From assembly GCA_038887515.1 (NCBI GenBank), contig JAWAKK010000001.1:67518-131517 (forward strand): a DNA stretch of 64,000 nt, given 5' to 3'. Made by a program: the position numbers and the translations under genes. Below are positions 13,223 to 21,858 of the stretch, piece by piece. Numbering within the stretch: the stretch's first letter is position 1; each line of letters begins with the position of its first letter. The notes beneath the pieces were generated by a model. The model searched no databases. It saw nothing but the letters and a program-made list of their open reading frames with translations, and was not told where the DNA came from. Source of the DNA: Candidatus Nezhaarchaeales archaeon (GTDB lineage Archaea > Thermoproteota > Methanomethylicia > Nezhaarchaeales > WYZ-LMO8).

Positions 13223-16060
13223 ATGGTTGAAAATGCCTTTGACCTATTAAGCGAGGAGATAAGGAGAGAGCTTATTAGCTTAGGCCTTACGAAGCCGACG
13301 GAGCCCCAACAGAGGGCCATCCCCCTAATTTTAAGTGGAAAGAACGTCCTCATAGTGTCTCCGACAGGAACTGGCAAGACGGAGGCAGCAGTTTTACCGA
13401 TATTCGATTTGATGAAAGTGTTGAAGGAGAGACATGAAGCTCAGGGGATACTATGCATCTATGTAACACCTCTCAGAGCTCTCAATAGGGACTTATGGGG
13501 TAGATTATCGAAGCTAGCCGAGAGAATAGGACTAGTGATTGAGGTTAGACATGGAGACACGCCGCAACACACTAGGAGGAAACAGGCTCAGCGGCCACCA
13601 GATATGTTGATAACTACTCCCGAGTCTCTGCAAGCGATACTCATAGGCAAAGTGATGAAGAGAAGTTTGTCGAACGTCAGATGGGTCATAATAGATGAAA
13701 TACATGAGCTCGTGGTCGACAAGAGAGGGGTTCAATTGTCCCTAGCCCTTGAAAGGTTGAAGAAGATATCCAGCAGACAATTGCAAAGGATAGGGCTTTC
13801 AGCTACTGTTGGCTCGGTAGACTTAGTTGGGAAGTTTCTTGTCGGTAGTGATGGTGACGTCGACGTAGTTTACATCCCTACATCTAGGGAGATGCAAATA
13901 ACTGTAGATTCCATTTCTTGCGAAAATGGAGAGCTCGCCTCAAAACTTCAAGTACCTCCTCCTATAGCATCAGCAATAGCTAAAGTAGCAGATGAGATAA
14001 GTCGGCACGAGAGCGTTCTTGTATTTACAAACACAAGAGAGAGCGCCGAACTGCTTGCTTCACGCCTAACGCTAATAGCTGGCGACATTAAAGTCAAAGT
14101 ACATCACGGCTCGCTCTCAAGAGAGGAGAGAATTCAAGCAGAGAACGACTTTAAAAGCGGTTTGGTTAAAGCCCTCGTATGCACATCCTCTCTTGAACTT
14201 GGAATAGACATAGGCTCTGTCGACTTCATAGTCCAGTTTACATCGCCCAGACAATCGACGCCACTAGTGCAAAGAGTAGGACGCTCTGGTCATAGAGTGG
14301 GTGGTGTGGCAAGAGGTCTCGTAGTGTCCTATTCATCTGACGACATCATAGAATCTGCAGTCTTGGCTAGGAGAGCAATGAGTGGAGAACTTGAAGAGAT
14401 AAAAGTTCATGAATGTGCATTTGATGTTTTGGCCCATCAAATAGTAGGTCTCGTAATTGATGAAGGCTCAGTAGACGTCGATGAAGCTCTTAGAATAGTT
14501 AGAGGTGCGTATCCCTATAAGGATCTAACTCGCGAAGCTTTCTTCGAGACTATAAAGTTCCTCTGCGATAGGGGGATCATAAAACTCGCGGGTTCAAGAC
14601 TTAAACGAGCCGGCAGACAAACCATAGAGTTTTACCTACAAAATTTATCAATGATACCTGATGTGAGGAAGTACGACGTAAGAGCCCTACCCGATAAGCA
14701 TAGAGTTGGATCCCTCGACGAAGAGTTCGTAGCTACTAAGGCTGAAGGCTCGCCAAGTATAATCTTAGGAGGTAGGGTTTGGAGGATCGTTGGTGTCGAA
14801 GAGTTGACGGTTTATGTAGAGCCCTCCGACGACATCTTTGGAGCCATACCGGCCTGGGTTGGGGAACTCATACCAGTTCAAATCGAAGTAGCTCTCGAAG
14901 TCGCTTCGATAAGAAGGAGGATCGAAGAACTGTATAACAAAGGATGCGATGTGAGAGAAGCCCTCAGGGGGTATCCTTTAAATGATAGAGCCCTTGAGGC
15001 AGCATTAGAGGATGTTATAGAACATCTAGGGCGAGGATTACCGTTACCCCACGATAGAAGGATAGTTGTTGAAGGTCTTGGGAATTACATCGTAATTCAT
15101 GCATGCTTAGGATCTAAAGCCAATGAATTACTTGGCCTCATATTATCTTCGATGCTCTCTAGCTCTCTAGCTCTAACAGTCCGCTATAGAGCGGATCAGT
15201 ATAGGGTCCTGATAATTTCGCCTCGAAGTATAAGAGCTAGCTTTGTAGCTAAAATGTTGAGCGAGCTTAGACCAGAGGACGTCGAGGTACTGGCCATAAA
15301 CCTTATTCCGTCTTCTGACATATACCTTTGGAGACTATTTCACGTAGCAAAGCGTATGGGAGTTGTAGATAAGAACGCTGAAGTCAAAGCCTTTTCCAAA
15401 GCCTATAAGTTCTTACTCGGAACGATAGTCGATAGGGCTGCTAGAATGGAGGTTTTAATAGATAAACTTGACGTTGAGGGGCTTAAGCGAACATTAGAGC
15501 TAATTGCGAAAGGAAAAGTAGAAGTCGTTTGGTTTGAAAGTGAAGGGCAAGCATCGCCCATGGCTATGCCGATACTCAACAAGTATATTCCAATAGAAGC
15601 ACATCTCCTTAAGGTCTCTGATAAGACTTTGGATGAAATGGTCTATGAAAGACTCATGGAGAGGACCGTGAAGCTAGTGTGTATGTACTGTGGTGGTTGG
15701 ACGACCGTAAGAAAAGTCAGGTATGTGCCTGACGACGTAAGATGCCCTAAATGTGGAGCCAGGTATATAGCTGTCACATGGCCAGGAGATAACAAAATCG
15801 AGAAGCTACTTAAAAAGATGTTTTCGGGTAAGCTCAATAAGCAGGAGATGGACGATGTTAGGAGATATAAGATGTCGGCAGGATTAGTCTTGACCTACGG
15901 CAAGAAAGCAGTTATGGTTCTAGCTGCTAGAGGTGTCGGTCCCCACACAGCATCAAGAATACTCGCTAAAGATGCTAGGGGCGATGGTACGCTATTTAAG
16001 GACATACTAGAAGCCGAGAAGACTTATATTAGGACTAGGATGTACTGGTCAGACGCTTAA
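13223..16060 (+). CDS. lhr: Lhr-type superfamily 2 DExH helicase (archaeal Lhr-core with C-terminal domains).
   Basis: Shows Q-motif PTEPQQRAIP, Walker A SPTGTGKTEAA, DExH as VIIDEIHEL, and helicase motif VI QRVGRSGHR. A C-terminal zinc ribbon is present (CMYCGG...CPKCG). The length, 945 aa, is typical of Lhr. Confidence 0.85.
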   Translation: MVENAFDLLSEEIRRELISLGLTKPTEPQQRAIPLILSGKNVLIVSPTGTGKTEAAVLPIFDLMKVLKERHEAQGILCIYVTPLRALNRDLWGRLSKLAERIGLVIEVRHGDTPQHTRRKQAQRPPDMLITTPESLQAILIGKVMKRSLSNVRWVIIDEIHELVVDKRGVQLSLALERLKKISSRQLQRIGLSATVGSVDLVGKFLVGSDGDVDVVYIPTSREMQITVDSISCENGELASKLQVPPPIASAIAKVADEISRHESVLVFTNTRESAELLASRLTLIAGDIKVKVHHGSLSREERIQAENDFKSGLVKALVCTSSLELGIDIGSVDFIVQFTSPRQSTPLVQRVGRSGHRVGGVARGLVVSYSSDDIIESAVLARRAMSGELEEIKVHECAFDVLAHQIVGLVIDEGSVDVDEALRIVRGAYPYKDLTREAFFETIKFLCDRGIIKLAGSRLKRAGRQTIEFYLQNLSMIPDVRKYDVRALPDKHRVGSLDEEFVATKAEGSPSIILGGRVWRIVGVEELTVYVEPSDDIFGAIPAWVGELIPVQIEVALEVASIRRRIEELYNKGCDVREALRGYPLNDRALEAALEDVIEHLGRGLPLPHDRRIVVEGLGNYIVIHACLGSKANELLGLILSSMLSSSLALTVRYRADQYRVLIISPRSIRASFVAKMLSELRPEDVEVLAINLIPSSDIYLWRLFHVAKRMGVVDKNAEVKAFSKAYKFLLGTIVDRAARMEVLIDKLDVEGLKRTLELIAKGKVEVVWFESEGQASPMAMPILNKYIPIEAHLLKVSDKTLDEMVYERLMERTVKLVCMYCGGWTTVRKVRYVPDDVRCPKCGARYIAVTWPGDNKIEKLLKKMFSGKLNKQEMDDVRRYKMSAGLVLTYGKKAVMVLAARGVGPHTASRILAKDARGDGTLFKDILEAEKTYIRTRMYWSDA

Positions 16061-16272: not shown

Positions 16273-19200
16273 TTGGAGAAGGATAGGTCGGAAACATCCT
16301 ACGCTAAGGCTGTAGGCATAATTGAAGGTAAAACTACTACCAATAGCTTTAGGATTAAGGTCTTGTCCAGCGATGTAGGGAAAAATTCCTTTCTTGAAGT
16401 AGCTCATGAAGGCTCATATTATGTCTGTGGAATTAAAGAGCTCTACCGAACTGAGGACGGCGTCTATGCAGAATGCTTCGTCATCGGTCAAGGACCCAAG
16501 CTACCCTTTACTCCTGGAAGCCCAGTTTACATAGCTAGAGAGGAACATGTAAGAAAAGCATTAAGGCTAAGTGATGACCCCTCAACCGGGATATACGTCG
16601 GCAAGCTGAAAGGATTAGAATGTAGAATTTGGCTTCCAATAAAGAAGCTCGGGAGAATATTCATAGTCGGAAAACCCGGTTCAGGTAAGTCTTACACTGC
16701 AGGGGTCTTCATAGAGGAATTACTGAAGAAAGGGATACCGCTACTAGTAATAGACGTTCACGGCGAGTACTCAAGTTTGAAGGTGATGGGTGACGTAACT
16801 TCCGAAGAGTTTGATGTATATCCTAAATCTTATGCGGAAAACGTTGTAGAGTTCGGAAATCTCAAAGTTAATCCTGGTGCTGACCTCTCGCTTGACATCT
16901 TAGAAGCAGCTAGGCCTGAAGACTTGATAGTTCCAGGCCAATGTACAATAATAAATCTTAGGGGCCTACTCAAAGAGGAGCAGATATCTCTAGTATCTTT
17001 TCTCCTCGAGAAAGTCTTTCAAGCAGTCATGGAAGGTAGGTTGAGGCCCTTTTATTGTGTTCTTGACGAGGCCCATAGATTTGCTGGAAGAGAGAGGACT
17101 AAGGCAACTGATGTTATTAGAAGGTTTGCACAGGAGGGTAGGAAATTTGGTGCAGGACTAGTCGTTATAACTCAAAGACCCCAACTACTTGATACGACCG
17201 TTAGAGGACTCGTGGGTACATGGGTAATTCATAGACTCTCAGACCCTAATGACATGAGGATAACGTTGGAAAGTGGAGGGCTTGAAAGTGAGTGGGAAAA
17301 CGTTATTGCTTGGCTCGAAAGCGGCGAAGCCGTCATAACGGGCGAAGCCGTTGAGAAGATACCGATAATAGTTAGGATTAGACCCCGAGAAACAAAGCAT
17401 GGAGGTGAAGGCTTTAATCCATTGGACTACGCAGCTAAGCCTAGCGACACTTCGGTTACGAAGATTCTTGAAAAGCTCTCTAAGACCGTAGTGCGCGACT
17501 TAGATAAACTTCAAAAACAACCCATTTCAGCTGTAGGCCTTCCCCAAACTTTTTTACCAATAGTCGTTGACGAGTCGGAAATCTTAACAAAGATCAAAGG
17601 CAAGTTACCCAATTTAAATGTCGACATGGTATCGTTAGAGATAAACTACATGCCTGCTCTATACTGTGAAGTTGAGGCGAGGGTTGAAAGGCAAAACCCT
17701 TACGTGAAGTTCTCAGATTCCATTCAGAGGCTAATACCAATCGGAGTAGAGGTTGGAGAGATAAATTGGGATAGCTCCCAAGCATATGGCGTAGAATTAA
17801 AGGATTTAGAGTCTATCGAACTCCTCCCATCACCCCCACAACCGGGCCTTTATCAAAAAACATGCTTTAATATTGCAGACTCAAAGGCCGTCAAGAAAGT
17901 TAAAGAAGAATTGTTGGCCTACACCGCTACAAAGCTTGTAAAAACGCTCTACTATAGCAAGAAATTAGGTAGGTTTTCGCTGACGAGCGATAGGCAAGCC
18001 TTCTTGTCAGAGTGCCTTAAGGAGATAGCTGAGATAGAACAAAACGAGGAGAGAAGTCTTGAAGAAAGTTACCTTAAATCTATTGCTGAAATAGACAAAG
18101 CAATAGAAAGGTACAACGAAAGGCTTCGAAGGCTCAGCGAACAATACAATATTTTAAACTACGAATACGAGCAACTGCGCGAACAATTAAAGGAAGCTAA
18201 GAAGCAGAAGAAATCCATACTAAAGCTTTCAAAACAGCTAGAGCTTAGAAAAAATAAGATAGAAGCCATTAGGGATGAAATATTGAAGATAAACACTCAG
18301 ATAAGAACATTAAACGATAAAAAACGAGCAATAGAGACGGAGCACAAGGAAAAAGTTAGGGAATTGAGAATAAAAATAGATTCGCTTAAAAAGTTTGACG
18401 TGAAGTCGCTAGTGATCCAACCCGAGCTTGAGGAGCTCTCGGTAAATAGCTTTCAACTCACGTGGGTTCCCATATATAAAGCTAAAGTGGTCATAGCGGG
18501 TGAAAATACGTCCAAAGAAATCGGAGTATGGTGGAACGCCTTAAATGGTAAGGGATTCTACGGTTCGTGTGTTATATGCGATGCAGAAATAAGGGACCTA
18601 TCAAACATGGCCATATGTGAAGTATGTTTTAATCCCATGTGTACGGCGCATATACTTGAATGCTATGCCTGTAGGGCACGCATATGTGCTAAGGACTCTT
18701 GGACTTGCGAATCATGTTCAAGGACTTTGTGCTTAAAAGAACCTCCATCTAGATGCAAATCTTGCGAAGCATTGTTGTGCAGGGAATGTGCTAAGAAATG
18801 TGTAGCCTGCGGAGGTGAGATAGCCTATTGTTCAAAACATCTAAAGAATTGCCCCGTATGTGGTGTAACGCTGTGCGATGAACACTTTAAAACTCATGTT
18901 ACGAAATGTAGCATTTGCTCCAAGACTATATGCGAAGCGCTGTCCGACAGATGCTCCATATGCAATGAGCCTCTGTGTAAAACTTGTTCAAATATATGTG
19001 CCGAGTGCGGTAAGACAATTTGCAGACGACACAGCTGGAGATGCAAAAGCTGCGGTAGGACATTTTGTATAAATGAGGAAAAGAAAACGTGTAGTGTATG
19101 CGGCGAGGATATGTGCTCATCGCATTCAAACTTCTGCGAGTTATGCGGCAAAGTAGCCTGTAAGAATCACACTTATCGATGTACTTCTTGTGGTAAGCTC

Positions 19201-19284
19201 ATATGCAAGGACTGTGTAGGTGAATCTAAGGGTTTTCTCCGGAGAAAAATGCTTTGTGTTGAGTGTGCGAGTAAGGAAAGTTGA
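16273..19284 (+). CDS. Multidomain protein. It has an N-terminal HerA/FtsK-like (DUF87) P-loop ATPase, a central coiled coil, and a C-terminal tandem array of CxxC zinc knuckles.
   Basis: The start codon is TTG. The ATPase region carries a HerA-like N-terminal barrel, Walker A (VGKPGSGKSY, encoded at 16669-16692), Walker B (CVLDEAHRF), and the HerA signature VVITQRPQLLDTTVRGLVGTWVIHRLSDPND. Residues encoded at about 18000-18420 are a heptad-rich region biased towards K, E and L (EQYNILNYEYEQLREQLKEAKKQKK...). Residues encoded at 18568-19281 form about 14 repeats of the form C-x2-C-x4-C-x5-7. Confidence 0.8.
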   Translation: MEKDRSETSYAKAVGIIEGKTTTNSFRIKVLSSDVGKNSFLEVAHEGSYYVCGIKELYRTEDGVYAECFVIGQGPKLPFTPGSPVYIAREEHVRKALRLSDDPSTGIYVGKLKGLECRIWLPIKKLGRIFIVGKPGSGKSYTAGVFIEELLKKGIPLLVIDVHGEYSSLKVMGDVTSEEFDVYPKSYAENVVEFGNLKVNPGADLSLDILEAARPEDLIVPGQCTIINLRGLLKEEQISLVSFLLEKVFQAVMEGRLRPFYCVLDEAHRFAGRERTKATDVIRRFAQEGRKFGAGLVVITQRPQLLDTTVRGLVGTWVIHRLSDPNDMRITLESGGLESEWENVIAWLESGEAVITGEAVEKIPIIVRIRPRETKHGGEGFNPLDYAAKPSDTSVTKILEKLSKTVVRDLDKLQKQPISAVGLPQTFLPIVVDESEILTKIKGKLPNLNVDMVSLEINYMPALYCEVEARVERQNPYVKFSDSIQRLIPIGVEVGEINWDSSQAYGVELKDLESIELLPSPPQPGLYQKTCFNIADSKAVKKVKEELLAYTATKLVKTLYYSKKLGRFSLTSDRQAFLSECLKEIAEIEQNEERSLEESYLKSIAEIDKAIERYNERLRRLSEQYNILNYEYEQLREQLKEAKKQKKSILKLSKQLELRKNKIEAIRDEILKINTQIRTLNDKKRAIETEHKEKVRELRIKIDSLKKFDVKSLVIQPELEELSVNSFQLTWVPIYKAKVVIAGENTSKEIGVWWNALNGKGFYGSCVICDAEIRDLSNMAICEVCFNPMCTAHILECYACRARICAKDSWTCESCSRTLCLKEPPSRCKSCEALLCRECAKKCVACGGEIAYCSKHLKNCPVCGVTLCDEHFKTHVTKCSICSKTICEALSDRCSICNEPLCKTCSNICAECGKTICRRHSWRCKSCGRTFCINEEKKTCSVCGEDMCSSHSNFCELCGKVACKNHTYRCTSCGKLICKDCVGESKGFLRRKMLCVECASKES
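18568..19281 (+). repeat. Coding tandem repeat of about 14 units, each about 15 aa, built from Cx2C-x4-C knuckles. This is the poly-zinc-ribbon tail of the HerA-like protein.
   Basis: Examples of the units are CEVCFNPMC, CYACRARIC, CKSCEALLC, CVACGGEIAYC, CPVCGVTLC, CSICSKTIC, CAECGKTIC, CKSCGRTFC, CSVCGEDMC, CELCGKVAC and CTSCGKLIC. The biased TGT/TGC-rich DNA also generates stop-free reading frames on the opposite strand. Confidence 0.75.
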
Positions 19285-19288
19285 AAAG

Positions 19289-20083
19289 CTACGAGCCAAA
19301 TCTCCTCTGTCGCTTCTGATAAGTTCTAATGGCCCTAAGCAAGTCTATATACCTGAATTCAGGCCAATACGCGTCGAGAAAGCAGAGCTCACTGTAAGCC
19401 GATTGCCAAAGCAGAAACCCACTCAACCTTTCTTCACCCGATGTCCTTATTATCAAATCTGGGTGAGGATTCGGAAGATGAGAAGTATACAAGAACCTCT
19501 CGAAAAGTTCTTCATTTATTTCTTCAGGCTTAACCTTTCCCTCAAGTACTAAACTTGTTAATTGCTTTATAGCATCTATTATTTCCGCCCTTCCACCGTA
19601 GGCTACCGCTATATTCAAGTAATAGTTCGAGTATTTCGCGGTAATTTCTTCAAGTTTGTAAAGAAGTTTTTGAATGTGGGACGGTAATAGCCAAATTCTT
19701 CCTAAGGCCTTGATCCTAACACCATTTCTCTGTATACGCTCATCGTTCAAAGCCCTTAACAATGTTTCCTCAACAACTTTCATTACTGCTTCAATTTCAT
19801 CGGATTTTCGTTTGAAGTTTTCAGTCGAAAATACATATATGGTTAAGGTCTTAATTCCAAGCCTTAAACACCAATCTAATAGTTTCTCGACGTTTTTAGC
19901 TCCAATTCTATAACCCTCCTCTAATGGTACCCTCCTTTTCTGTGACCAACGCCTGTTACCATCAAGTATAACTCCTATGTGCTGAGGTAAAGACCTATAG
20001 TTGGCCTTTACAGCTCTTTCAAGCCACTTTTCGTATAATTTGTAAACTCCTAGGTACCTTAAGACTCTTTCAAACCAGCTCAT
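19289..20083 (-). CDS. uppS: Cis-prenyltransferase (undecaprenyl / dolichyl-type diphosphate synthase).
   Basis: Carries the UPPS motifs HIGVILDGNRRW, ENFKR and RTSGEERLSGFLLWQ. Confidence 0.85.
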   Translation of the reverse strand: MSWFERVLRYLGVYKLYEKWLERAVKANYRSLPQHIGVILDGNRRWSQKRRVPLEEGYRIGAKNVEKLLDWCLRLGIKTLTIYVFSTENFKRKSDEIEAVMKVVEETLLRALNDERIQRNGVRIKALGRIWLLPSHIQKLLYKLEEITAKYSNYYLNIAVAYGGRAEIIDAIKQLTSLVLEGKVKPEEINEELFERFLYTSHLPNPHPDLIIRTSGEERLSGFLLWQSAYSELCFLDAYWPEFRYIDLLRAIRTYQKRQRRFGS

Positions 20084-20514
20084 TGGCTACGTCGCCTAGC
20101 CCTTCTCATGCTTACTTCTTTTAAGCTCTCCTTATTAAACGGTTTACCTGATTCAAGAATCTCCCGGGGAAACTTTTCAAGCCACTTTTTCATAAATTCA
20201 AGCTCTTCGTTTGGATCCATAATTCGTTGGTCGTCGGGTAACATGTGTGGAATCTCATCTATTATTGGATACCACCGTTGACAGCCTTCACATATGATGA
20301 GCCCTTCTACTACTTCCTTTGAGAAGCAGTCGAGACAGAGATCGTCTGTCGGCTTTACATCTTCAACTCGACCATTCTTTAGAGCACAGTAGAGAGGACA
20401 CTTTGATGGTAGTTCCTTCGGCTTTTCCCTTTCTTCAATTACAAACGTTATTAGCTTTAATGGGAATTTCTTACACATAGGACACGCGAGCAAGTCCATA
20501 AGTCTTAGCTTCAA
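20080..20514 (-). CDS. Trm112-like small zinc-binding protein of the DUF343 family.
   Basis: Has the paired motifs LLACPMCK and ICEGCQRWYPIIDEIPHML. It overlaps the uppS start by 4 nt. Confidence 0.55.
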   Translation of the reverse strand: MKLRLMDLLACPMCKKFPLKLITFVIEEREKPKELPSKCPLYCALKNGRVEDVKPTDDLCLDCFSKEVVEGLIICEGCQRWYPIIDEIPHMLPDDQRIMDPNEELEFMKKWLEKFPREILESGKPFNKESLKEVSMRRARRRSQ

Positions 20515-20583: not shown

Positions 20584-21858
20584 GTGCTTGCGGTGGGCAT
20601 AACGACTCTATGCGTGTTCGAAGATGAGGGTTGGGAAGCCCTTCTTCCAATCACGTACACTAAAGCCGTTTACGAGCTTACATGCGGGTCAAAGACCCTA
20701 CTTAAAAGGGCTATTGAGACTTTAAATCCTCAAAAAGTCCTATTGATAGCTAGAGAATATCTTAGAGACAAATTGGCTGAAAGAACTACCTTCATAGTTA
20801 ACGAACCAGATGTAGAAGGTGAGGTTCTTTTCCTAAATGGAAGACTCCTCTTAGACCCTGAAGCTACCTCAATTATTCGTTCCATTAAGGTCGGAGAGGC
20901 TTTGTCATGTAAGGGCTCTCTCGCAGCTATGAAGCTTCGAGAAGGGGTAGCACGAGGAGTGATAGTAAACAAGATTTTTGAACCTAAACTCGTTAAATCG
21001 TTTGCAGAGGTAAGGGAAGTAAACTTAAGGTTCGTTAGGCACCCCTGGGATCTAGTAGAGCTTACGCCGAAACTCCTTGACGAAGTGTCGACATTGGGAG
21101 AGGGTTATGGAGGAGACGATATCAAAATTATCGGAGACCCTAAGATGCTAAGGGTTGCCGGTGAGCTTAATATTGAGGGTCTAGTGGTGGCGAATGTTAG
21201 GAAGGGGCCAATTTACATAGGAAGTGGCTGTCAAATAGAAGGCTATACCGTTATTAAGGGACCAACGTACATAGGTAACAATTGTGTAATTAAGAGTGCT
21301 TACATTGGGTCGGGGTGCTACATAGGTGATATGTGTAGAATAGGTGTTGGAAGCGAGTTGGAAGAGACGATAATTTCAGGCTTTACAAACAAGCAGCATT
21401 TAGGCTTCATAGCTCACTCGTATATAGGTGAGTGGGTGAACATAGGAGCCGGGACAAACGTCTCTGACTTAAAGAATACCTACGGTACCGTAAGAGTCTA
21501 CATAGGCGATTCAAAAATCGATACAGGCCTTATAAAGCTTGGATGTTTTATGGGCGATTACGTAAAGACAAGCATAGGAACGCAGATGTATTCGGGTAAA
21601 AAGATAGGCCCCTTCTCGCACGTACATGGCTTCATATACGATGATGTACCTCCCTTTACAATATGGGCTAAGAGCCTAGGCTTTGAACCCGTCGAGCTAA
21701 GGCTTGAATCTGCAATAGAAACTCAGAAAAGGATGTACGAGAGGAGGGGCTTCTCGCAAACAAAGGCCGATATAGAGCTTATAAAAAAACTTTTTGAATT
21801 AACAGCAAAAGAAAGAGCTAAAAGTGGAGTTAATAAAGAGCCTTTTAAACTAGGCTAA
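20584..21858 (+). CDS. Protein with a nucleotidyltransferase-like N-terminal domain followed by a left-handed beta-helix hexapeptide-repeat domain, resembling GlmU or eIF2B-epsilon.
   Basis: The C-terminal half is built from long [LIV]-G-x-x-x-x-I hexapeptide repeats. The N-terminal domain resembles an NTP-transferase fold but lacks a clear GxGxR motif. Confidence 0.5.
   Translation: MLAVGITTLCVFEDEGWEALLPITYTKAVYELTCGSKTLLKRAIETLNPQKVLLIAREYLRDKLAERTTFIVNEPDVEGEVLFLNGRLLLDPEATSIIRSIKVGEALSCKGSLAAMKLREGVARGVIVNKIFEPKLVKSFAEVREVNLRFVRHPWDLVELTPKLLDEVSTLGEGYGGDDIKIIGDPKMLRVAGELNIEGLVVANVRKGPIYIGSGCQIEGYTVIKGPTYIGNNCVIKSAYIGSGCYIGDMCRIGVGSELEETIISGFTNKQHLGFIAHSYIGEWVNIGAGTNVSDLKNTYGTVRVYIGDSKIDTGLIKLGCFMGDYVKTSIGTQMYSGKKIGPFSHVHGFIYDDVPPFTIWAKSLGFEPVELRLESAIETQKRMYERRGFSQTKADIELIKKLFELTAKERAKSGVNKEPFKLG

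Follow-up and report, generated by a model that had tools for sequence, protein, structure and literature searches.

A HerA-like ATPase gene of Candidatus Nezhaarchaeales encodes a 14-unit cysteine-rich tail that may form a zinc-stapled binding arm

Here, we examined a 64,000-nucleotide stretch of the genome of a Candidatus Nezhaarchaeales archaeon (the window; positions are counted from its first letter), in which an open reading frame (ORF) at 16273-19284 on the forward strand encodes a protein of 1003 amino acids (aa). The protein joins a HerA-like ATPase to a predicted coiled-coil arm and to a tail that is extremely rich in cysteine (18568-19281, codons 766-1003). In the homologue search, the record with a 100% identical protein was annotated as 'DUF87 domain-containing protein [Candidatus Nezhaarchaeales archaeon]'. 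An earlier note, made from the letters of this DNA, had described the tail as about 14 tandem zinc-knuckle repeats carried by a motor ATPase. The parts of the gene are listed below, with secondary structure taken from an AlphaFold2 (AF2) model of the full-length protein (monomer; predicted local distance difference test, pLDDT, 85.4).

16273..19284, forward strand: whole gene, HerA-like ATPase with coiled-coil arm and putative poly-zinc tail; TTG start, stop codon at 19282-19284
16315..16533, forward strand: N-terminal beta-barrel, HAS-barrel-like (aa 15-87); all-beta in AF2, the model aligning with HerA structures 9x1m and 4d2i
16570..17427, forward strand: RecA-like P-loop ATPase core (aa 100-385), from Pfam DUF87 and Foldseek matches to HerA
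16669-16692, forward strand: Walker A, GKPGSGKS (aa 133-140), invariant
17053-17070, forward strand: Walker B, ..VLDE (aa 261-266), invariant
17545..17982, forward strand: beta-rich middle domain (aa 425-570), with long AF2 strands at 449-474 and 477-489
17992..18390, forward strand: antiparallel coiled-coil hairpin, helices aa 574-644 and 650-706 in the AF2 secondary structure
18403..18561, forward strand: long beta-hairpin and WNAxNGxG motif entering the array (aa 711-763), AF2 strands 722-742 and 747-755
18568..18906, forward strand: first 7-unit block of the putative zinc array, A1-A7 (aa 766-878), from sequence, AF2 and conservation
18877-18897, forward strand: junction helix within the first block (aa 869-875), with H871 and H875
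18907..19215, forward strand: second 7-unit block, A8-A14 (aa 879-981), from alignment of the two halves and ligand conservation
19216..19281, forward strand: basic linker (GESKGFLRRKML) and terminal C995-x2-C998 opening a C-terminal helix (aa 996-1002 in AF2)

The cysteine-rich tail is real, and its periodicity and order are far beyond chance. It holds 46 of the 54 Cys of the protein (19% Cys in 238 aa versus 1% in the first 765 aa) and 18 CxxC motifs. Fourteen knuckle-bearing units begin at aa 766, 782, 797, 812, 828, 843, 860, 879, 894, 909, 924, 940, 955 and 970 and are followed by a terminal CxxC at aa 995. They share the pattern C-x2-C-G-[KR]-x-[LVIF]-C-x2-[H/C/D/E] with a period of 15-19 aa, and the Cys-Cys autocorrelation has its maximum at lag 15. 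Fifteen C..C-x4-6-C motifs were found, compared with 3.9 +/- 1.8 in composition-preserving shuffles (maximum 11 of 5000); such shuffles also predict 8.8 CC, and both CC and CxC are absent from the tail. All seven His of the tail occupy ligand-type positions, six of them at +3 after the third Cys and the seventh being H875. The first unit, CVIC, has no third Cys. The unit consensus and the period of about 15 aa that had been proposed for this tail were thus borne out by the autocorrelation, the shuffles and the unit logo described below.

The cysteine-rich frame is also the translated one. A frameshift or a wrong frame was rejected, since this frame is continuous with the ATPase ORF and is under purifying selection: in comparison with two orthologues, the proportion of non-synonymous changes (pN) was 0.24-0.26 and that of synonymous changes (pS) about 0.9. 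Among 12 orthologues, every invariant Cys column (44/44) uses TGC as well as TGT. The note had further regarded the DNA of this region as a degenerate tandem repeat, which did not hold. Tandem Repeats Finder at score 30 reported no repeat in the tail DNA, direct repeats were just pairs of 12-19 nt, a size expected by chance, and the identity at a lag of 45 nt (0.366) was barely above the maximum of codon shuffles (0.356). A coding repeat of the mini- or microsatellite kind was also rejected because there are no head-to-tail copies and the length of the tail is constant among orthologues. The repeat exists at the protein level only.

Three long ORFs overlapping the tail, which had been attributed to the DNA repeat, do exist in the ORF listing. 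They are shadow ORFs and not genes, the cysteine frame being the selected one:

18878-19072, forward strand: shadow ORF
18894-19151, reverse strand: shadow ORF
18926-19129, reverse strand: shadow ORF

ORFs of similar size (63-80 aa) overlap neighbouring genes without repeats as well (15643-15837, 17594-17785, 19674-19913 and 20730-20972), and therefore the shadow ORFs need no repeat as their explanation.

To date, 93 clusters of full-length homologues are known from the homologue search. These proteins have 990-1030 aa and 36-77% identity and come from Nezhaarchaeales, Bathyarchaeia, Methanomethylicia/Methanosuratincola and Culexarchaeia (Culexmicrobium). Among 92 orthologues the tail has about 248 aa with about 46 Cys, and the number of units is fixed in most of them. 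At least 93% conservation was observed for 44 of the 46 Cys of the query, and H793, H871 and H875 are conserved in 100%; C995 and C998 are invariant. A logo built from 731 orthologue units reads x-K-C-[SA]-[IV]-C-G-[KR]-x-[LVIF]-C-x-[ED]-[H/C/D/E], with four ligand positions per unit (C0, C3, C8 and position 11). Position 11 is H in 48%, C in 27%, D in 11% and E in 6% of the units (92% together), and the pattern at this position is alike in the other architectures that carry the array. All 56 ligand positions (14 x 4) are kept in 74 of the 92 orthologues. In the orthologues L014, L017 and L019 (some Bathyarchaeia and one Methanomethylicaceae sequence), both ligands of the turn of unit 13 are lost (C963 to G/S, H966 to R/Y) and all knuckles are kept. 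Judging from these substitutions, one zinc site (B13 in the naming below) appears to be dispensable or re-ligated there.

When aa 766-878 and aa 879-981, the halves of the tail, were aligned as profiles by hhalign, they matched with a probability of 99.9% (E 1.6e-33, 104 columns), which argues that the array is a duplicated 7-unit block. Together with the conservation of its length, this strongly suggests an ancient, fixed-length domain of 14 units. Length variants differ in register: P0012 and P0013 lack exactly units 3-6, and P0095 consists of a single short block (6 sites). It had been asked earlier whether copy number varies among relatives; among orthologues it does not, apart from the variants just named, and wide variation is found in other architectures, whose arrays range from 7 to 44 CxxC motifs.

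For the fold of the tail, an AF2 model of aa 705-1003 gave a mean pLDDT of 90.9 and a predicted template modelling score (pTM) of 0.70. Every unit in this model consists of a strand, a six-residue knuckle loop and a strand closing on the third Cys, followed by a 3-10 turn with the His; aa 869-875 form the only real helix within the array units. The closest solved folds are cross-braced fingers of the FYVE, PHD and AN1 types. The profile of the tail also matched the EEA1 FYVE domain (E 0.0044), the MID1 B-box (0.0056) and the ALFY FYVE domain (0.011). One match in BFVD was annotated as 'prokaryotic metallothionein' (E 7e-3), and a reading of C860..C879 as RAD18 UBZ-like was set aside as non-significant (E 0.13). 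The Pfam matches of the tail at E <= 1 were zf-C2HC5 (15.2 bits, cut-off 25.8) and DUF2180 (13.9 bits, cut-off 22.2), both below threshold.

In this model, each unit is a short beta-hairpin tipped by a C-x2-C-G knuckle (pair A); a 3-10 turn with C-x2-[H/C/D/E] (pair B) comes after it. By analogy with FYVE, AN1 and the cysteine-rich domain (CRD) of the piggyBac transposase, one zinc may be held by knuckle A(i) together with turn B(i+1), so that about 14 interleaved, cross-braced sites of the Cys4, Cys3His or Cys3Asp/Glu type would staple the units into a continuous rigid body. Those three domains have the spacing of the tail, and in them a knuckle holds one zinc, while the C-x2-H/C that comes after a gap of four residues holds the zinc of the knuckle before it. 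At the junction of the two blocks, H875 and C887 would supply the remaining ligands of site A7 (C860, C863). In the FYVE alignment, A(i), A(i+1) and B(i+1) correspond to FYVE pairs 1, 2 and 3, respectively. The stretch C955..C981 with the terminal pair shows the FYVE-like spacing C-x2-C-x11-C-x2-C-x4-C-x2-C-x13-C-x2-C, and the last ligand pair, C995/C998, has no knuckle of its own and lies on a helix past a basic linker, like the fourth pair of FYVE. The first module, C766-x2-C769-x12-C782-x2-C785-x4-C790-x2-H793-x3-C797-x2-C800, fits the piggyBac CRD motif CX2CX11CX2CX4CX2HX4CX2C, in which nuclear magnetic resonance showed one zinc to be bound by pairs 1 and 3 and the other by pairs 2 and 4 (PMC5861402).

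The A(i)+B(i+1) register predicts both the knuckle-only start and the lone terminal C-x2-C, and under it the Cys count (28 + 14 + 4 = 46) uses all the Cys of the tail. The rule for start and end is also kept in shorter variants, namely P0012 (four units deleted in register), P0095 and P0163. No other simple register fits the start, the end and the Cys count. Ligand losses in the family are too few for an analysis of co-loss to inform the register.

In the fold and profile matches, the tail resembles FYVE domains (such as those of EEA1, CARP2 and Hrs) in local fold and ligand spacing. FYVE, however, is a stand-alone, eukaryotic, membrane-targeting domain with two zinc sites, whereas the tail would have about 14 overlapping sites in one chain and lacks the WxxD, R(R/K)HHCR and RVC motifs that bind phosphatidylinositol 3-phosphate. 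The DnaJ cysteine-rich domain has four CxxCxGxG repeats, with two Zn whose centres lie between different repeats. Unlike the units of the tail, these repeats have no third Cys and no His, number only four and pair 1-4 and 2-3 in a hairpin, and no match of this domain to the tail was found in any search made here. AN1, B-box, PHD and RING treble-clef fingers occur as single or as two or three separate domains, whereas the tail is a continuous register of 14. AN1 and the piggyBac CRD both have the unit motif CX2CX4CX2H at their core. The CRD, a C3H + C4 cross-brace whose motif is nearly identical to the first module of the tail, binds DNA (PMC5861402), but it is a single binuclear module of a eukaryotic transposase, and its sequence-specific binding needs conserved basic residues that have no counterpart in the tail. 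No sequence homology between the CRD and the tail was found, although no search was aimed at it.

With regard to the motor, the earlier attribution of the tail to a motor ATPase was well founded. The ATPase core matched Pfam DUF87/HerA (PF01935) with 55.9 bits (cut-off 23.2, E 8e-15) and the PADLOC models HerA (4e-30) and mad8 (1e-26), and the Walker residues are identical throughout 36 sequences. Foldseek recovered archaeal HerA at E 2e-22 (HerA of T. kodakarensis and S. solfataricus; 9x1m and 4d2i at about 1e-22). The NCBIfam HerA equivalogs NF040937 and NF040819 scored only 93.6 and 82.1 bits (cut-offs 800 and 970) and HerA_antiphage 54.5 bits (cut-off 800). Because these scores are far under the cut-offs, the protein is not an orthologue of the repair or the anti-phage HerA. 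The barrel and the RecA-like core are common to the query and to characterised HerA proteins (archaeal double-strand-break repair; anti-phage SIR2-HerA and DUF4297-HerA), but the latter are without its additional 620 aa, which comprise the beta domain, the coiled coil and the putative zinc array.

Between the motor and the array, the middle domain (aa 425-570) had no Pfam match, and its reading as UPF3 RRM-like was dropped as non-significant (PDB profile match, E 0.09). The coiled-coil hairpin gave weak matches of the coiled-coil type only, to SMC, Rad50, LmuB and JetC. W731, P733, W754, N755, G761 and G764 are invariant in the hairpin region that precedes the array. Coiled coil and hairpin are homologous to the pre-array region of array proteins linked to SNF2 (hhalign 95%, E 3.5e-8).

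The array is not restricted to this ATPase. An exhaustive phmmer search with the tail against 1.84 billion representatives detected 228 clusters at E <= 1e-3 and 72 at E <= 1e-10; as these are clusters of 50% identity, the family has at least that size. A word-indexed homologue search with the tail alone gave no match, which, given the 228 clusters, is probably a limitation of the index. No Pfam, NCBIfam or PADLOC model matched the array in the query or in about 27 proteins of other architectures, and we found no description of the array family in the literature. Among viruses, no relative was present in IMG/VR, and BFVD gave just low-TM matches to Zn-repeat proteins of giant viruses.

The fusion partners observed were Mrr_cat restriction-endonuclease domains, a DUF559 endonuclease with a UvrD helicase, HerA/DUF87 ATPases of a second type (among them one from an Anaerolineae bacterium) and another P-loop NTPase. 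A large group carries an uncharacterised N-domain of ~300 aa with weak similarity to YqhG. In 4 of the 6 contexts examined, an SNF2/SF2 helicase gene directly precedes the array gene with this N-domain and overlaps it. The array proteins next to SNF2 lack an ATPase (P0121, P0127, P0133 and P0134; loci L005 8001-10316, L006/L007, L090 and L091), and the arrangement is present in bacterial and archaeal contigs alike, which suggests a two-gene system of SNF2 and zinc array. One N-domain of these proteins gives a weak Pfam match to YqhG, and in B. subtilis yqhG adjoins the SNF2 gene yqhH.

Several members of these other architectures have features of their own. P0132 (885 aa) contains about 11 near-identical 30-aa double units at aa ~470-800 (CNSCKKQFCQTDRTRCAECDLEFCRNDAGE), which from their sequence look like a recent tandem expansion, unlike the frozen array of the HerA fusion. 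P0141 (1610 aa, 155 Cys) has a giant, partly degenerate array over about 1200 aa, and P0125 (1274 aa) combines a long lysine-rich N-terminal region without a Pfam match with the module of coiled coil, hairpin and array. Two bacterial contigs have small DUF2997 and DUF1257 genes downstream of the array gene (L005 10369-10952 and L089 5451-6019), and L005 also has an AAA ATPase gene upstream and a radical-SAM gene downstream.

In the window, the surroundings of the HerA-like gene are of a housekeeping kind (GatA/B, polyprenyl synthase, Lhr-type helicase, UppS, Trm112, sugar nucleotidyltransferase and AOR), and guanine-cytosine content is even around the gene. Comparison of 14 loci from four classes revealed no neighbour conserved beyond within-class synteny, and a conserved operon partner of the HerA fusion was therefore rejected. 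Neither a NurA, Mre11, Rad50, SIR2 or DUF4297 partner nor an operon with a defence effector was found near the gene. The nearest ATPase-only relatives are Asgard proteins of 552 aa with a C-terminal coiled coil (40-51% identity over aa 1-390). They have no array in the gene or within 6 kb of it, and a split version with the array in an adjacent gene was rejected on this ground, the neighbours showing lineage synteny only.

Upstream of the gene by 213 bp and on the same strand, a 945-aa Lhr-type helicase (DEAD, Helicase_C, WH_Lhr and DEAD_assoc; 13223-16060, forward strand) bears a C-terminal CxxC...CxxC pair. Its adjacency is probably local synteny, being absent in Methanomethylicia and Bathyarchaeia. 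Downstream, a Trm112-like ORF of 144 aa (20080-20514, reverse strand) has a C-terminal extension with additional Cys pairs; the 40-position Pfam model is stretched over residues 1-85 and therefore the protein has a large insertion. A 110-aa ORF (19220-19552, forward strand), which runs across the 3' end of the array gene and is antisense to UppS (19289-20083, reverse strand), is most likely a spurious shadow ORF.

The best explanation of these data, to which we assign a probability of roughly 0.6 as a whole, is that the gene encodes a conserved, stand-alone, chromosomal HerA-clade ATPase of thermophilic Thermoproteota, whose tail is a 14-unit zinc-stapled binding arm of a HerA-like DNA translocase. 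The HerA-like part would form a ring translocase with six arms around the translocation axis, each subunit projecting a coiled-coil hairpin (roughly 100 A long, judged by the lengths of its helices) tipped by the zinc-stapled arm. The arm would not be catalytic and may serve as a platform that binds or positions a substrate polymer, most likely DNA, or a partner protein. We infer both ring formation and the binding role of the arm. Since DNA motors and nucleases recur as partners of the array, a DNA-related role is favoured.

Several observations weigh against this explanation. The association with DNA enzymes speaks for nucleic-acid binding, whereas a zinc-loaded array, being roughly neutral to acidic, argues against it: the tail has 36 K+R and 26 D+E, and with 46 thiolates and 14 Zn2+ the net charge would be about -8, which is not usual for a non-specific DNA binder. 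The non-ligand surface residues are mostly poorly conserved, and a conserved gene neighbour in any lineage is lacking, including the NurA, Mre11 or Rad50 partners sought above. The AF2 model carries no metal, and that the metal is zinc and not iron is assumed. Support for the A(i)+B(i+1) register comes from analogy and from the rule for start and end, not from sulfur-sulfur distances. In addition, Glu, an unusual zinc ligand, occupies two B positions (E823, invariant, and E935, at least 90%), and B8 is without a conserved fourth ligand in the normal position.

A role as protein scaffold or spacer would be compatible with the neutral or negative charge, the poorly conserved surfaces and the lack of a conserved partner gene, all of which argue against simple non-specific DNA binding. 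The poly-zinc structure would then be a rigid element between proteins, a spacer or a scaffold for oligomerisation, which brings in or encloses a partner or links HerA rings, with no direct contact to nucleic acid. The closest folds (FYVE, PHD, RING, B-box, AN1 and LIM) mostly read proteins or lipids, the framework is invariant next to a variable surface, and the range of array lengths found elsewhere is such as a spacer would show. On the other hand, every recurrent fusion partner is a DNA enzyme, DNA binding is known for some cross-brace fingers, such as the piggyBac CRD (PMC5861402), and the missing partner gene counts against a scaffold as well. We consider this alternative rather unlikely.

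The earlier note had proposed that pairs of knuckles form about seven classical four-cysteine zinc ribbons, which would thread DNA or RNA processively. CxxC knuckles at the tips of beta-hairpins are indeed the building block of zinc ribbons too, the array is borne by a translocase, and a weak match to the ribosomal zinc-ribbon protein L37Ae was obtained (E 0.08-0.3). However, ribbons use two ligands per unit and not four, and would give no role to the invariant third Cys (14 in all) or to the conserved His, Cys and Asp. The Pfam families suggested in the note for checking (DZR, zinc-ribbon, B-box and TRASH) had no match in the tail at E <= 1, and the same was true of the FYVE, AN1, PHD and RING models. 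The four conserved ligand positions per unit together with the match to FYVE, PHD and AN1 folds therefore indicate about 14 sites instead of seven, and the ribbon proposal is improbable. A further role, in which the cysteines sense redox state or metal or store metal (in the manner of metallothionein or of Hsp33/RsrA) and the arm, unfolding upon oxidation or loss of zinc, switches the ATPase, could be imagined from the 46 thiols in 238 aa, the metallothionein match in BFVD and the hosts being anaerobic thermophiles for which oxidants are a stress, but it is highly improbable because the geometry is regular, conserved and confidently folded, unlike that of metallothioneins, with no CC or CxC clusters, while His, Asp and Glu ligands and a hydrophobic core are conserved as in structural fingers and no redox genes are linked.

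If the zinc-stapled arm is accepted, its unit fold is the known treble-clef cross-brace finger. Cross-brace fingers such as FYVE, PHD, RING and AN1 are known as modules with one or two sites, for the most part from eukaryotes. What appears to be undescribed is the unbroken chain of many sites, the combination of this chain with a coiled-coil arm and its occurrence on prokaryotic DNA enzymes. More tentatively, and with the odds still against it, the zinc chain may represent an unrecognised, widespread class of prokaryotic domain, a continuous rod of variable length that was recruited more than once, together with a coiled-coil hairpin, as a substrate-sensing or measuring arm by HerA-like, SNF2, UvrD and Mrr enzymes of undescribed systems for genome maintenance or conflict, the Thermoproteota version being the fixed 14-site arm of a housekeeping translocase. 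If this is true, interleaving through 14 sites, with as many as about 40 in relatives, would amount to a novel way of constructing long rigid protein rods, and the prokaryotic array may be an evolutionary reservoir for cross-brace fingers. Defining the family (at least 228 clusters, with no database model) would annotate many 'hypothetical' proteins and reveal unstudied DNA-handling systems, one of which would be the conserved single-gene HerA-like machine of Bathyarchaeia, Methanomethylicia and Nezhaarchaeales.

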